A DNA stretch of 64,000 nucleotides from Vicinamibacterales bacterium (GTDB lineage Bacteria; Acidobacteriota; Vicinamibacteria; Vicinamibacterales; UBA2999), in assembly GCA_035495795.1 (NCBI GenBank), contig DATJFF010000196.1, positions 1,326 to 65,325 of the forward strand. The letters run 5' to 3'. The translations under genes were made by a program, and so were the position numbers. Every line of letters begins with the position of its first letter. The first letter of the stretch is position 1. Under the pieces are notes generated by a model. The model saw only the letters and a list, made by a program, of their open reading frames with translations, searched no databases and was not told where the DNA came from. Of this stretch, positions 24,730-56,680 are shown in pieces.

Positions 24730-26244
24730 CTACTGGCAACGGAAGTTCCTTGCCTCGTCGGTGCTGCCGCTGCCAATGTAGTGCGCCGTCGCCGGATACG
24801 CGCACAGCGGCCGAGTGCGGTCGACGACGCCGCTGGTCAGGTGCGAGGCTTCGATCGACTGCGGCTTCTGGCCGGTTTCGACCCAGCGATCGAGCGTACC
24901 CACTTTGTCGAAGACGTCAGTGCCTGGCCCGCCCTGGCAATGTGCCATCCCCGGCACCATGAACAGCGCGACCGCATTCGAGCCCGCCGATCCGACCGCC
25001 TTCGAGATCCGCTCGTACATGATCAGGCTGGTGTCGGGCGAGACGAGCGGATCGGCCCAGCCGTGATACATCAGCAGTTTGCCGCCGCGTTTGAAGAAGG
25101 GCGAGAGGTCGGGATCGCCGCCGTACAGCAGGCCCTGGTCCGCTTTCACCGCGCGCTCCACGTCCTCTGGCACCTTGATCGTGTGATAGTCCCAGCTGGG
25201 TGTGAACACGATCTTTCGCATCCCTTCGTGAGACTCCCCTGACGGCACGGGGCCTCCGACGCCGCCCCATCCGAGCTCGGATCCCGGATAGTAGCGGCCC
25301 GGATGCAGAACGGCGCCGCTCTTCGGATCGCGAATCGGACGCATCATGGCGTTCGCCGTCTCGACCTGATCCTTCGTCAGGCAATCGGCACGATCCTCTG
25401 CGGCGCACGTGAGCGTCGCGAAGTCGAAAGAGCACTTTGACGGATCCTCGATGACGCCGTCCTTCACGCCGTCCAGGGCATCGCACCGGTTGAGGACCGC
25501 GTTGTGCATCATCGAATACTTGCTCGGGGGGATCACCGCGGCCGGCGTGCGGTTGACGTAAGTGTTCAACCATACACGCGCGGCGTACAGGCGCATCTGA
25601 TCCCACGACGGATCGCCGGCTGCGATGCCATCGAAATCCTCGGGATACCGCTGCGCCTCGATCAGGGCCTGACGTCCGCCGGTCGAGCAGGAGTTGAAAT
25701 ACGAGCGAGCCGGCGGCGCGTCGTAATGCGCGGCGACGACCGCCTTCGCGGTCACCGTCATCTCGTGAATCGCGCGGTAGGCGAAGTCGACGAGCTTCTC
25801 GGGATGTCCGGGGACGAAGTCGGCGTTGCCGCCCACGTGACCGCCATCGGTTCCGGCGGCGGCATATCCGGCTTTGACCGACGCCGCCATCGCCGGATAC
25901 GGAATCTCTCCTCCCAAGCCGCCGTTTCCCGACGCCTGCAGCTTGCGATTCCACCCCGACTGCGGCAGCCACACTTCGACGCGGATGTCGGAGTCGGCGG
26001 ATGGAGCCAGCTTCAGCGTCACGCGACAGAACGCCGGCAGCGTCGTGAATACCGCGGTCGCGGCCGCATTGGCCGCCGTTGGCGGCGCGAACGCGCCAGC
26101 CTGCACGGGCTCAGCCGCCAGCACCCTTCCATTCGTCACCGCCACCTGCGCGAGTGACTCGCATGCAATCGGCGCAGACGTTGGGGCATTCAAGGCATCG
26201 ACTGTCGCCGCACCGAACAAGGCGATCAAGACCGCGATTCTCAT
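24730..26244 (-). CDS. Secreted tannase/feruloyl-esterase family hydrolase
   Basis: Signal peptide MRIAVLIALFGAATVDA. The nucleophile block FNSCSTGGRQALIEAQRYPEDFDGIAAGDPSWD is typical of the tannase/feruloyl esterase family. Confidence 0.9.
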   Translation of the reverse strand: MRIAVLIALFGAATVDALNAPTSAPIACESLAQVAVTNGRVLAAEPVQAGAFAPPTAANAAATAVFTTLPAFCRVTLKLAPSADSDIRVEVWLPQSGWNRKLQASGNGGLGGEIPYPAMAASVKAGYAAAGTDGGHVGGNADFVPGHPEKLVDFAYRAIHEMTVTAKAVVAAHYDAPPARSYFNSCSTGGRQALIEAQRYPEDFDGIAAGDPSWDQMRLYAARVWLNTYVNRTPAAVIPPSKYSMMHNAVLNRCDALDGVKDGVIEDPSKCSFDFATLTCAAEDRADCLTKDQVETANAMMRPIRDPKSGAVLHPGRYYPGSELGWGGVGGPVPSGESHEGMRKIVFTPSWDYHTIKVPEDVERAVKADQGLLYGGDPDLSPFFKRGGKLLMYHGWADPLVSPDTSLIMYERISKAVGSAGSNAVALFMVPGMAHCQGGPGTDVFDKVGTLDRWVETGQKPQSIEASHLTSGVVDRTRPLCAYPATAHYIGSGSTDEARNFRCQ

Positions 26245-26303
26245 GGGTGGAAGTCTAGACCCGAACCCGGGCCTCCGCGCGGACGTGCGACACTTCTGTA
26301 CCG

Positions 26304-26439
26304 GGCTGCTGAAAAGCGCAGCCTGAAGTGAAAAGTGAGAGGTGAGAAGTGAGAAGCACGATCCATCCCCCGAAATTCAGAGCTTCTCACCTCCCACTTC
26401 TCTCTTCTCACTTCAGGTGCTGGCTCCTTCAGCAACCTG
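26304..26439. repeat. Near-palindromic intergenic element built from GTGARAR heptads
   Basis: The core arms 26322-26357 and 26382-26417 pair at 32 of 36 positions (31 Watson-Crick plus 1 G:U) around a 24-nt loop. The left arm is four tandem heptads, GTGAAAA GTGAGAG GTGAGAA GTGAGAA. The outer ends form small hairpins at 26304-26323 and 26414-26439. Confidence 0.8.
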
Positions 26440-26454
26440 CCAAGGAGGTGCCTC

Positions 26455-26949
26455 GTGAAGAAACTGCTCGTTGCCGTGCTCACCGTCGGCTTGCTCGCCG
26501 CCCATGACCTAGCGGCGCAGTCGACGCCCCCGTCGATTCAAGGCGTGTGGCGGATCGTCGAAGCGACCACGACCGGCCCCGGCGCCCGAACGATTCCGTT
26601 CGCCGGGCGACCCAACCTGACCATCATCACCGGCAAGCACTACAGCCGAGTCGAAATCCAGGCCGAGGGGTCACGGCCGGTTCTGGCGGATGCGGCAAAG
26701 GCGAGCGCCGACGAACTGCGAGCGGTATGGGGGCCTGTCGTCTGCGAAGCCGGAACGTATGAAGCGACAAAAGACGGCCTGATCACGATGCGTCCGATTG
26801 CCTCGAAGAACCCCGCGGTAATGGGCGAGGGCGTATTCATCACGTACGCCTACAAACTGGAAGGGGACACGCTGTCATTGACGCAGCAGCGCAACCAGAA
26901 CGGGCCGTTCGCCAACCCGTTCTCGCTCAAGTTCGTGCGGGCCGAATGA
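26455..26949 (+). CDS. Secreted lipocalin-like domain protein (paralogue A)
   Basis: GTG 26455 follows AAGGAGG. Signal peptide MKKLLVAVLTVGLLAAHDLAAQ. The IQGVWRIVE...GKHYSRVEI pattern is lipocalin-like. It is a paralogue of 36344..36853. Confidence 0.75.
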   Translation: MKKLLVAVLTVGLLAAHDLAAQSTPPSIQGVWRIVEATTTGPGARTIPFAGRPNLTIITGKHYSRVEIQAEGSRPVLADAAKASADELRAVWGPVVCEAGTYEATKDGLITMRPIASKNPAVMGEGVFITYAYKLEGDTLSLTQQRNQNGPFANPFSLKFVRAE

Positions 26950-44139: not shown

Positions 44140-44895
44140 ATGGCCCGGATCGACGAAGTCGCGCCAGATTTGTTTCGAGTCTCGGTTTATGCGCCGCAGT
44201 TCGACCTGCAATTCAACCATTTCCTGATCAGGGACGACGAGCCGCTCCTGTTCCACACCGGGATGCGCCGGATGTTCCCGGAAGTCCGCGACGCGGTCGC
44301 GCAGATCATCGACCCGGCCACGCTGCGCTGGATCAGCTGGAGCCATTTCGAGGTCGACGAGTGCGGCGCCCTGAACCAGTGGCTCGCCGTCGCTCCCAAG
44401 GCCCAGCCCGTGTGCAGCAAGGTTGGCGCCGCCGTCAACCTGGACGACTTCGCCGATCGCCCGGCCCGCGGCCTCGGGAAGGACGAGGTGATCGAGACCG
44501 GCCAGCACCGCTATCGCTTCGTGCCGACGCCGCACCTGCCGCATGGATGGGACGCCGGGGTGCTGTTCGAAGAAACGACGGGCGTGCTCCTCTGCTCCGA
44601 CCTCTTTCACCAGCTCGGCGACGTCGAGCCGGTGACCTCCAACGACGTGCTGGGCCGATGGGACGCGGCGGTGGCGGCGTACCAGAAGCATCCCGTGCTC
44701 ATGGATTACGTGCCGCTGACGCCGGCGACACGGCGGCGGCTGAACGAGCTTGCCGACCTGCAGCCGCGCGTGCTCGCCGCGATGCACGGGTCCACGTTCG
44801 TCGGCGACGCCGCGGCCGCGCTGCGCAATGCTGCCGACATGCTCCAGAATCGCCTTGGAGTGTCGGCACTGGACCTGGCCGGCGCGAAGGCCTGA
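44140..44895 (+). CDS. MBL-fold protein of the flavodiiron/ODP-like type (no flavodoxin domain)
   Basis: ATG follows [23 protein letters not shown] and [17 protein letters not shown] carry the H-x-E-x-D-(H/E) di-metal motif arrangement of FprA-like MBL domains. Confidence 0.75.
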
Positions 44896-44905
44896 CGGTG
44901 CGCCG

Positions 44906-44946
44906 TCACTTTTCACTTTCAGGTTGCCGGGTTTTCCAGCAACCTG
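44906..44946 (+). repeat. Solo copy of the ~40-nt terminal hairpin module of the 26304-26439 element
   Basis: TCACTTTTCACTTTCAGG (44906-44923) differs by one inserted T from the reverse complement of 26322-26338. It is followed by the hairpin CAGGTTGC-N11-GCAACCTG (44920-44946). The module ends directly at the ATG of the ECF sigma gene. Confidence 0.65.
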
Positions 44947-45531
44947 ATGGCGATGCCGGAGACCGACGCCACGCTCGACGCGGTCAGCGACGAGGGGCTC
45001 GCCCGCCGCATTGCCAGCGGGCTGCCGGGATCGACCGACGCCGAGGAAGCCGAGTTATACCGTCGCTTCGCGCCCAGGGTCCGGTTGTATGGACGCCGGC
45101 ACCTGCGCGACGAAGCGGCGGCCGAGGACCTCGCGCAAGAGGTGCTGCTGCTGACGATCGAACGCTTGCACGCCGGTGAAGTGCAGAAGCCGGAGCAGAT
45201 TGGTTCGTTCATCCTGGGAGCCAGCCGGATGATGGCCCACGGCGAACGCCGAGTGGCGCGGCGGCGGGAAGCGCTTGCCGCCCGCTTCATGCCGACCGCG
45301 GCGGAAACGGCGCCGATGTCTCTCGCCTCGCTCGACGCGCCGCGCGTGGCTGCTTGCCTGCGGGGGCTCGCCGAGCGCGACCGGCTGGTGTTGCTGCTCA
45401 CCTTCTACGCCGAGCGGGAAGCACCGCGCATCGCGGACGACCTCGGCGTCTCGCCGGGCGCGGTCCGCGCCATCCGCCATCGGGCGATGGCCCGGCTTCG
45501 CGACTGTGTGCTCGGGGAGGCCCGATCATGA
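44947..45531 (+). CDS. ECF sigma factor (paralogue 2)
   Basis: FAPRVRLYGRRHLRDEAAAEDLAQEVLLLTIERL aligns with MAPRIHLYGLRHLRSAPAADDLVQQVLLAMLEAL of 32672..33211. Region 4 reads LAERDRLVLLLTFYAEREAPRIADDLGVSPGAVRAIRHRAMARLR. Confidence 0.85.
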   Translation: MAMPETDATLDAVSDEGLARRIASGLPGSTDAEEAELYRRFAPRVRLYGRRHLRDEAAAEDLAQEVLLLTIERLHAGEVQKPEQIGSFILGASRMMAHGERRVARRREALAARFMPTAAETAPMSLASLDAPRVAACLRGLAERDRLVLLLTFYAEREAPRIADDLGVSPGAVRAIRHRAMARLRDCVLGEARS

Positions 45532-56551: not shown

Positions 56552-56680
56552 GGCTCCCTCCTTGTGCGCCTCACTATTCACGTTCGCCGCGGCGGAGTCC
56601 TGACCGATTCTTCGCGTTTTCCTGAAGTTGTCGCAGCCCGCCGCGAGCACTAGAATTCGGGAACTCCCTCGGGTGATCAG

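Follow-up and report, generated by a model that had tools for sequence, protein, structure and literature searches.

A probable family of miniature, non-coding DNA transposons with hairpin ends and 7-nt repeat arms in soil Acidobacteria

The hairpin modules that recur in a 64,000-nucleotide stretch of DNA from a Vicinamibacterales bacterium (contig DATJFF010000196.1; this whole stretch is called the window) are very probably the ends of an undescribed family of miniature non-coding, non-autonomous DNA transposons (MITEs) of Acidobacteria. The assignment is based on the fact that the modules belong to a dispersed, sharply bounded, non-coding repeat which has inverted ends and 4-bp direct flanks and for which empty sites exist. 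Within the window, the family is represented by a complete element (26302-26439) and a solo end (44906-44946). A previous sequence-only reading had described three copies of a hairpin module, designated M1, M2, and M3, always located 5' of a gene and carrying a compensatory stem substitution, and had favored selection on structure. Much of this description was confirmed. The three module sequences are present where they had been placed, the distance to the start codon is 59 nt for M1 (ATG of the tannase gene at 26244 on the minus strand) and 15 nt for M2 (GTG at 26455), M3 ends at 44946 and adjoins an ATG at 44947, and the stems read GGCTGC/GCAGCC in M1 and GGTTGC/GCAACC in M3. The recurrence exceeds chance, as six occurrences of the 13-mer TCACTTTTCACTT, with two mismatches at most, were counted in the window, compared to 0.37 expected from shuffles, and this count was reached by 0 of 100 shuffled sequences. 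All but one of the occurrences lie inside the three modules. The exception, a two-mismatch occurrence at 56571-56583 (TCACTATTCACGT), has neither an adjacent hairpin nor a match to the covariance model R1 and was rejected as a chance match.

The three modules are, however, not three independent copies. M1 and M2 belong to opposite ends of a single 138-bp palindromic element and are thus arms of one inverted repeat, which leaves two loci. The features of these loci and of the neighboring genes are the following:
24730-26244, minus strand: tannase/feruloyl-esterase gene, neighbor outside the full element (Pfam PF07519, E = 5e-104)
26298-26301, no strand: left flanking tetranucleotide GTAC, putative decayed target-duplication position, as judged from the family flanks
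26302-26439, no strand: complete 138-bp repeat element containing M1 and M2 (inverted-repeat and tandem-repeat structure)
26302-26325, plus strand: R-type terminal hairpin, M1 core, CGGGCUGC-UGAAAAGC-GCAGCCUG from outer to inner (R1, 59.7 bits, E = 3e-14)
26326-26357, plus strand: 7-nt repeat array, AAGTGAR, about 4.6 units (Tandem Repeats Finder, period 7)
26358-26381, no strand: 24-nt center separating the inverted arms (repeat pair I1)
26382-26413, minus strand: inverted 7-nt repeat array, reading CTTCTCA on the plus strand (inverted and tandem repeat detection)
26414-26439, minus strand: L-type terminal hairpin, M2 core (R1, 47.8 bits, E = 1e-10)
26440-26443, no strand: right flanking tetranucleotide CCAA, followed by the Shine-Dalgarno sequence GGAGGTG of the lipocalin-like gene (sequence)
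26455-26949, plus strand: lipocalin-like gene, neighbor; the element is inserted just 5' of its Shine-Dalgarno sequence (homologs, spacer alignment)
44140-44895, plus strand: ODP-family metallo-beta-lactamase-fold gene, upstream neighbor of M3 (Pfam PF19583)
44906-44919, minus strand: two 7-nt repeats of M3, TCACTTTTCACTTT on the plus strand (sequence)
44920-44946, minus strand: L-type terminal hairpin of M3 (R1, 44.5 bits, E = 1e-9)
44953-45531, plus strand: ECF sigma factor gene, downstream neighbor of M3 (Pfam; ortholog alignments)

The complete element is composed of a terminal hairpin, a 7-nt array, a 24-nt center, an inverted 7-nt array, and a second hairpin. Its inverted arms (26322-26357 and 26382-26417) are 86% complementary and separated by 24 nt, and what had been called the "5' block" of the modules is a tandem array of 7-nt units, identified by Tandem Repeats Finder with period 7 as GAAGTGA (4.6 copies, 26325-26356) and CTTCTCA (4.6 copies, 26383-26414). 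The R-type hairpin (26302-26325) has a folding energy of -15.2 kcal/mol (z = -3.1), and the M2 hairpin, which contains one bulge, reads CAGGUUGCUG-AAGGAGC-CAGCA-CCUG on the minus strand from outer to inner. When the whole element is folded at minimum energy (-70.3 kcal/mol, z = -7), both ends pair with each other. GTAC on the left and CCAA on the right presumably represent the decayed position of a 4-bp target duplication; the flanks of both window copies are too decayed to display one, and the empty sites of relatives differ at 26298-26301 and 26440-26443, so that a duplication is not demonstrable at the full window copy. A match with 88% identity to this copy is located at an unrelated place (locus L172, positions 80-218), and the L172 element defines, together with those in L160 and L205, the subfamily to which the window copy belongs.

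A pattern scan of species-representative genomes revealed at least 13 matches in a single metagenome-assembled genome (MAG), Acidobacteria gp6 AA50 (QHWF01), and single matches in about ten other Acidobacteria MAGs, among the matches listed. Metagenome contigs were scanned with a pattern that accepts any base at stem positions 5 and 6 and at the positions pairing with them, and about 85 of the 121 matches listed are true members. With the model R1, 131 modules were recognized in 81 soil-metagenome loci, again among the matches listed. R1 detected no copy in the 64-kb window besides the full element and M3, no module in 109 kb of loci from organisms related to that of the window, and only two matches, both in one doubtfully labeled MAG, in 708 kb of loci from outside the Acidobacteria. 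The viral contigs gave three chance pattern matches and not a single family member (none by R1), and the plasmid collection gave no match to the family. The repeats therefore constitute a dispersed family which is restricted to Acidobacteria and common in soil members of this phylum. The source names of proteins homologous to those of the window likewise place its organism in the Vicinamibacterales. The doubtfully labeled MAG is 'uncultured Bifidobacteriaceae' (CAYJPQ01), with members at L085 7421-7468 and L092 4375-4422; the two stretches have a G+C content of 68-71%, and either the label or the binning seems doubtful.

Members of the family share a common layout, i.e., (C)TAG, a stem-loop CAGG...CCTG, four to five AAGTNAR units, a center, inverted repeats, a second stem-loop, and CTAG. 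Full copies have a length of 125-147 bp, with modes at 129 and at 139-140 bp, and are non-coding, as their interior consists of 7-nt repeats. The 7-nt periodicity is found family-wide, with an autocorrelation of 0.59 at lags 7 and 14 versus 0.21-0.33 elsewhere (119 distinct arms). Two types of ends can be distinguished. The R-type end, to which M1 belongs, reads CAGGCTGC-TGAAAAAC-GCAGCCTG from outer to inner and has the hairpin consensus CAGGCTGCTGAAAAACGCAGCCTG, whereas the L-type end, represented by M2 and M3, reads CAGGTTGCTG-AAAAAGC-CAGCAACCTG and has the hairpin consensus CAGGTTGCTGAAAAAGCCAGCAACCTG; in the MAG AA50, an L-type variant CAGGTCGC...GCCGACCTG is present. All 44 cleanly typed full copies carry one R and one L end and never two alike, which means that a "GGCTGC" end is always combined with a "GGTTGC/GGTCGC" end. 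The first 15 nt of both ends (CAGGYTGCTGAAAAA, outer to inner) form a terminal inverted repeat with 14 of 15 positions identical.

Besides the full copies, several other forms were observed. Short variants of 69-74 bp have two hairpins and almost no 7-nt repeats (e.g., among L029 3563-3631 and L147 6395-6468); further places of short variants are L154 (about 1378-1435), L175 (about 566-624), and L032 (4496-4516), and one lone hairpin in this group lacks 7-nt repeats altogether. In L146 (45-233), three modules (minus, plus, minus) are found within 190 nt, an arrangement resembling a nested or tandem insertion. A subfamily in L153, L161, L169, L171, and L202 carries GAACTNA 7-nt repeats in its inner arms; GAAC, which is part of these repeats, forms the core of -35 boxes of the ECF type. 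Many contigs start or end inside an element (L042 1-115; L032 6804-6851; ends of L155, L159, L238, L138, L173, and L248), and the repeat appears to break short-read MAG and metagenome assemblies.

The exchange of a C:G for a T:A pair seen in the window corresponds to the difference between the R and L types and is compensated throughout the family. Of the 121 distinct modules, 74 have C-G and 41 have U-A at stem pair 5, which is unpaired in 2 cases, and stem pair 6 is U-A in 93, C-G in 18, U-G in 3, and unpaired in 3 cases. The observed covariation score was reached by no shuffle, and the true stem partners pair in 90% of cells versus 3-47% for slid partners. The element in L180 even has two additional compensated pairs (CCGGTTGCCG/CGGCAACCGG). 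Many individual copies, on the other hand, contain uncompensated mismatches, and the covariation states separate a few element lineages, so that the number of independent events is small. Because the lineages are few and uncompensated copies are many, the structure is regarded as a property of the propagating element which is not maintained at the individual insertion. The compensatory change as such is thus confirmed by pairs 5 and 6 across the family, but the gene-regulatory meaning given to it is not, since it belongs to element lineages. A strand bias of G.U wobbles (examples in M1, M3, L029, and L077) was considered as evidence for a functional strand and dropped, as transversion mismatches are equally common.

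The mobility of the element is reflected by its boundaries. The 12 copies in AA50 have a mean identity of 88% and a maximum of 99%, whereas their flanks are 30% identical, which equals random sequence; the ends of the element are sharp. CTAG is present on both sides in 17 of the 44 full copies, and four intact copies are bounded by direct repeats other than CTAG, namely TTAG/TTAG (L167, L243), CTAA/CTAA (L142), and GTAG/GTAG (L008). Only these four are informative with respect to a 4-bp or a 2-bp duplication; L071, L216, and L205 are compatible with either a 4-bp or a TA-only duplication, and L178 displays the inverted pattern CTAA/TTAG. Because the variants are direct repeats and not inverted complements, the tetranucleotide is not part of each inverted end, and both an inverted-repeat part and a REP-like tag were ruled out as explanations of CTAG by the direct non-CTAG repeats. 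Judged from these sequences, the flanks appear to have arisen by duplication of 4-bp, YTAR-like targets, as in IS5, which duplicates 5'-YTAR-3' (PMC5009759). IS630 prefers TA within 5'-CTAG-3' and duplicates TA only (PMC2170065). A TA-only duplication inside CTAG requires an additional coincidence in each of the four copies.

The same four copies bear on a REP- or REPIN-like origin, in which the hairpins would be REPs with a 5' tetranucleotide tag and inverted doublets would replicate via single-stranded DNA with the aid of a single-copy RAYT (HUH/Y1) protein. The family has palindromic units of 24-27 nt preceded by NTAG, which are found singly or as inverted doublets of about 130 nt, outside genes and frequently at their 3' ends. 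Furthermore, the compensated stems, including the two compensated pairs of L180, fit the recognition of a folded single strand, and the two palindrome types per doublet recall the Y and Z REPs contained in the BIMEs of E. coli. RAYT-like genes occur in Acidobacteria (PMC3733652). A REP tag predicts inverted complements, however, and the variant tetranucleotides at the four intact copies form direct repeats. The putative tag is NTAG with a variable first base and therefore neither GTAG nor CGTC, and no RAYT gene adjoins copies in the fetched loci. Target duplications are not known from REPINs. We consider this origin very unlikely.

Comparison with relatives revealed empty sites at both loci of the window. 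The spacer between the tannase and the lipocalin-like gene comprises 210 nt in the window, but only 68 nt in L132, 67 nt at the P0122 place (derived from gene coordinates only), and 67 nt in L131, the lipocalin identities being 95%, 91%, and 89%, respectively. In the alignment, the difference is a single clean inserted block between ...GACACTTC and GGAGGTGCCTCGTG. The spacer between the ODP and the sigma factor gene has 14 nt in L124, L125, and L126, whose sigma factors are 83-84% identical, versus 51 nt in the window. Near-identical strain contigs (L001-L004) are uninformative for such a comparison. The full copy thus entered the tannase/lipocalin spacer after the split from the relatives with 89-95% identity, and it would now separate the native upstream region from the Shine-Dalgarno sequence of the lipocalin-like gene.

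These empty sites also argue against the reading proposed earlier, i.e., a cis-regulatory RNA with a defined structure, such as a 5' leader or an operator-like element, positioned before genes and with its stem under selection. All three window modules are near gene starts, M3 folds well, two stem pairs covary, and in L044, L097, and L110 a start codon lies directly next to a solo module. Against this, close relatives lack the modules in their orthologous spacers, target duplications border the copies, Rfam gave no match, and the covariation separates few element lineages and not many independent events. The placement of M1 and M2 "always 5' of a gene" is a by-product of a palindromic element lying between divergent genes.

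The history of M3 points in the same direction. The ECF sigma factor most likely starts at the ATG at 44953 (ATGCCGGAG), as suggested by alignment with the orthologs in L124, L125, and L253, and the ATG at 44947 is situated at the insertion junction with M3. In the window, the M3 hairpin folds with -24.2 kcal/mol on the minus strand (z = -6.5) and with -19.7 kcal/mol on the plus strand (z = -4.7). An ortholog of M3 is kept in the relative L253, the sigma factor of which is 88% identical, but its stem (CAGGCGGC...GCACCCTG) has two broken pairs, neither of which is compensated, and shuffled sequences fold just as well as this region (z = -0.7 and 0.15, compared to -4.7 and -6.5 in the window). 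Since the stem decayed without compensation in L253, M3 is considered an old insertion under neutral drift, and 44906-44946 is an older, decaying solo end within the ODP-sigma spacer. Locally, its consequence would be a hairpin of -19.7 kcal/mol placed directly 5' of the sigma factor start. A separate small terminator-like hairpin at 44893-44908, with the sequence TGACGG-tgcg-CCGTCA ahead of CTTTTCACTT, extends over the stop codon of the ODP gene and into the beginning of M3; the chance expectation for this region is about 0.2 sites of this kind.

With respect to genes, the elements occur between convergent, tandem, and divergent gene pairs, and their orientation to genes is random. Gene starts reading away from the ends are 3-108 nt distant without a peak, and the solo modules in L044, L097, and L110 adjoin start codons in either orientation. 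The scan therefore did not bear out the positional constraint assumed in the sequence-only reading, as stops, starts, and convergent genes were all found next to modules, with either end facing them. A cis-regulatory RNA, at odds with both orientations, the many positions, the lack of the modules in relatives' spacers, and the uncompensated loss of the M3 stem in L253, is largely refuted here and must be regarded as extremely improbable. A false lead is thereby removed: the ECF sigma factor, tannase, and lipocalin genes are not regulated by the hairpins. Another ECF sigma factor gene (PF07638, E = 2e-48) has a solo R-type module (L110 3545-3622) directly against its ATG; this module is oriented oppositely to M3. 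ECF sigma factor genes are numerous in the phylum Acidobacteria, and this placement is probably a coincidence.

One position is nevertheless conspicuous. At 20 of the 137 outer ends that were assessable (15%), the stop codon of a long high-GC3 open reading frame lies directly against the hairpin (19 TAG, 1 TAA), whereas every other stop distance up to 30 nt is represented by 0-2 cases; R and L ends are equally affected (11 of 82 and 9 of 55, respectively). The spike could indicate a host-exapted 3' element, that is, a terminator or mRNA-stabilizing hairpin right after stop codons, the mobility of which would be merely historical. Apart from the 15% of ends located exactly on a stop codon, the stability of the hairpins and the folding of the whole element into one long hairpin fit such a function, and effects on mRNA stability are known for other bacterial MITEs and REPs (PMC3733652). 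However, no U tract follows the hairpins, copies are also found before starts and, as in the window, in divergent promoter regions, and their orientation is unbiased. Promoter and terminator scans gave nothing in the full element and no terminator site in 26150-26550, and the only terminator site near M3 is the separate hairpin at 44893-44908. The spike is explained by the CTAG target, since the TAG of the abutting stop codon is the flanking tetranucleotide itself: in a genome with about 66% G+C, stop codons offer CTAG sites at which a duplicating insertion spares the gene. Exaptation as a 3' element is accordingly judged highly improbable. The family rather illustrates how TAG stop codons, as places where an insertion does no harm, can allow a CTAG-targeting element to spread through a genome rich in G+C.

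For the MITE family favored here, the following mechanism can be proposed. The element would insert at YTAR-like tetranucleotides, mostly CTAG, and duplicate them. Mobilization in trans would probably, on balance, be due to a DDE transposase of the IS5 kind; an IS630-like, TA-duplicating enzyme is a distinctly less probable mobilizer. The stem-loops and 7-nt repeats would serve the active element, either in transposase recognition or as part of a single-stranded intermediate, and not host genes. Other transposons carry repeated subterminal motifs as binding sites, and the 7-nt repeats may likewise be subterminal binding sites. Among the matches listed, no autonomous partner or transposase adjoins any copy or is located within the approximately 1.3 Mb of loci, and in all of these loci there are neither sites with the terminal repeat only nor inverted ends 0.6-3 kb apart. 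Open reading frames between neighboring copies are ordinary genes, encoding a DUF4097 protein, a glutamine synthetase, a PDZ protease, and a response regulator.

A DDE mechanism alone leaves two properties unaccounted for, namely the self-complementary, compensated stem-loop termini and the fixed pairing of R and L ends (44 of 44). The compensated termini, the two fixed kinds of ends, and the 7-nt-repeat arms are the reasons for considering a single-stranded, hairpin-recognizing transposition with 4-bp duplication. Such a mechanism, or else an exaptation as stop-proximal RNA hairpins or outward promoters, is unlikely; if the single-stranded mechanism were true, it would combine a REPIN-like lifestyle with a DDE-like footprint.

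Rfam contained nothing at gathering score for the whole window, and at E-value thresholds the elements gave only weak matches to microRNA precursors, which reflect generic long hairpins. In the literature searched, no MITE or REP family of Acidobacteria with such features was found. What emerges is a widespread repeat family in uncultured soil Acidobacteria, the Vicinamibacterales among others, of which neither Rfam nor the literature searched gave any trace. Recent insertions are usable as strain markers, and both annotation and MAG assembly can benefit from knowledge of the family. How such elements are recognized is, moreover, a small question raised by the compensated hairpin ends and the 7-nt arrays.

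Among the known systems, ERIC sequences are imperfect palindromes of about 127 bp which are found in intergenic transcribed regions in either orientation, with partial copies being common. The acidobacterial element resembles them as an imperfect intergenic palindrome, but it belongs to another phylum and has an unrelated sequence, and ERIC sequences are without two-kind hairpin termini and 7-nt arrays. REP, REPIN, and BIME sequences share with it the palindromes of 20-40 nt, the occurrence as singlets and inverted doublets, the two types, the extragenic location, and the compensated stems. In contrast to them, the acidobacterial element has target duplications and a long 7-nt-repeat spacer between the palindromes, carries no GTAG or CGTC tag, and has no RAYT linked to it. 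MITEs of the IS630/Tc1-mariner type, such as Correia of Neisseria and Nezha of cyanobacteria, are similar in their size of 100-160 bp, the long hairpin formed by the whole element, the intergenic location, and the sequence CTAG, which is the commonest acidobacterial flank; Correia elements are sometimes co-transcribed with their neighbors. They show no sequence similarity to the acidobacterial element, in which the outer bases of the tetranucleotide also seem to be duplicated (TTAG/TTAG, CTAA/CTAA, GTAG/GTAG), favoring a 4-bp over a TA duplication. IS5-derived MITEs are likewise short and non-coding, have terminal inverted repeats of about 15 nt, are dispersed in intergenic regions with empty sites in relatives, and are flanked by 4-bp direct repeats, which in the acidobacterial family are CTAG, TTAG, or CTAA (YTAR) plus one GTAG. 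In the fetched loci, no IS with the same ends was found among the matches listed, and no such IS is known. What distinguishes the acidobacterial element from IS5-derived MITEs are its termini, which are compensated stem-loops, its interior arrays of 7-nt repeats, and its two fixed kinds of ends.
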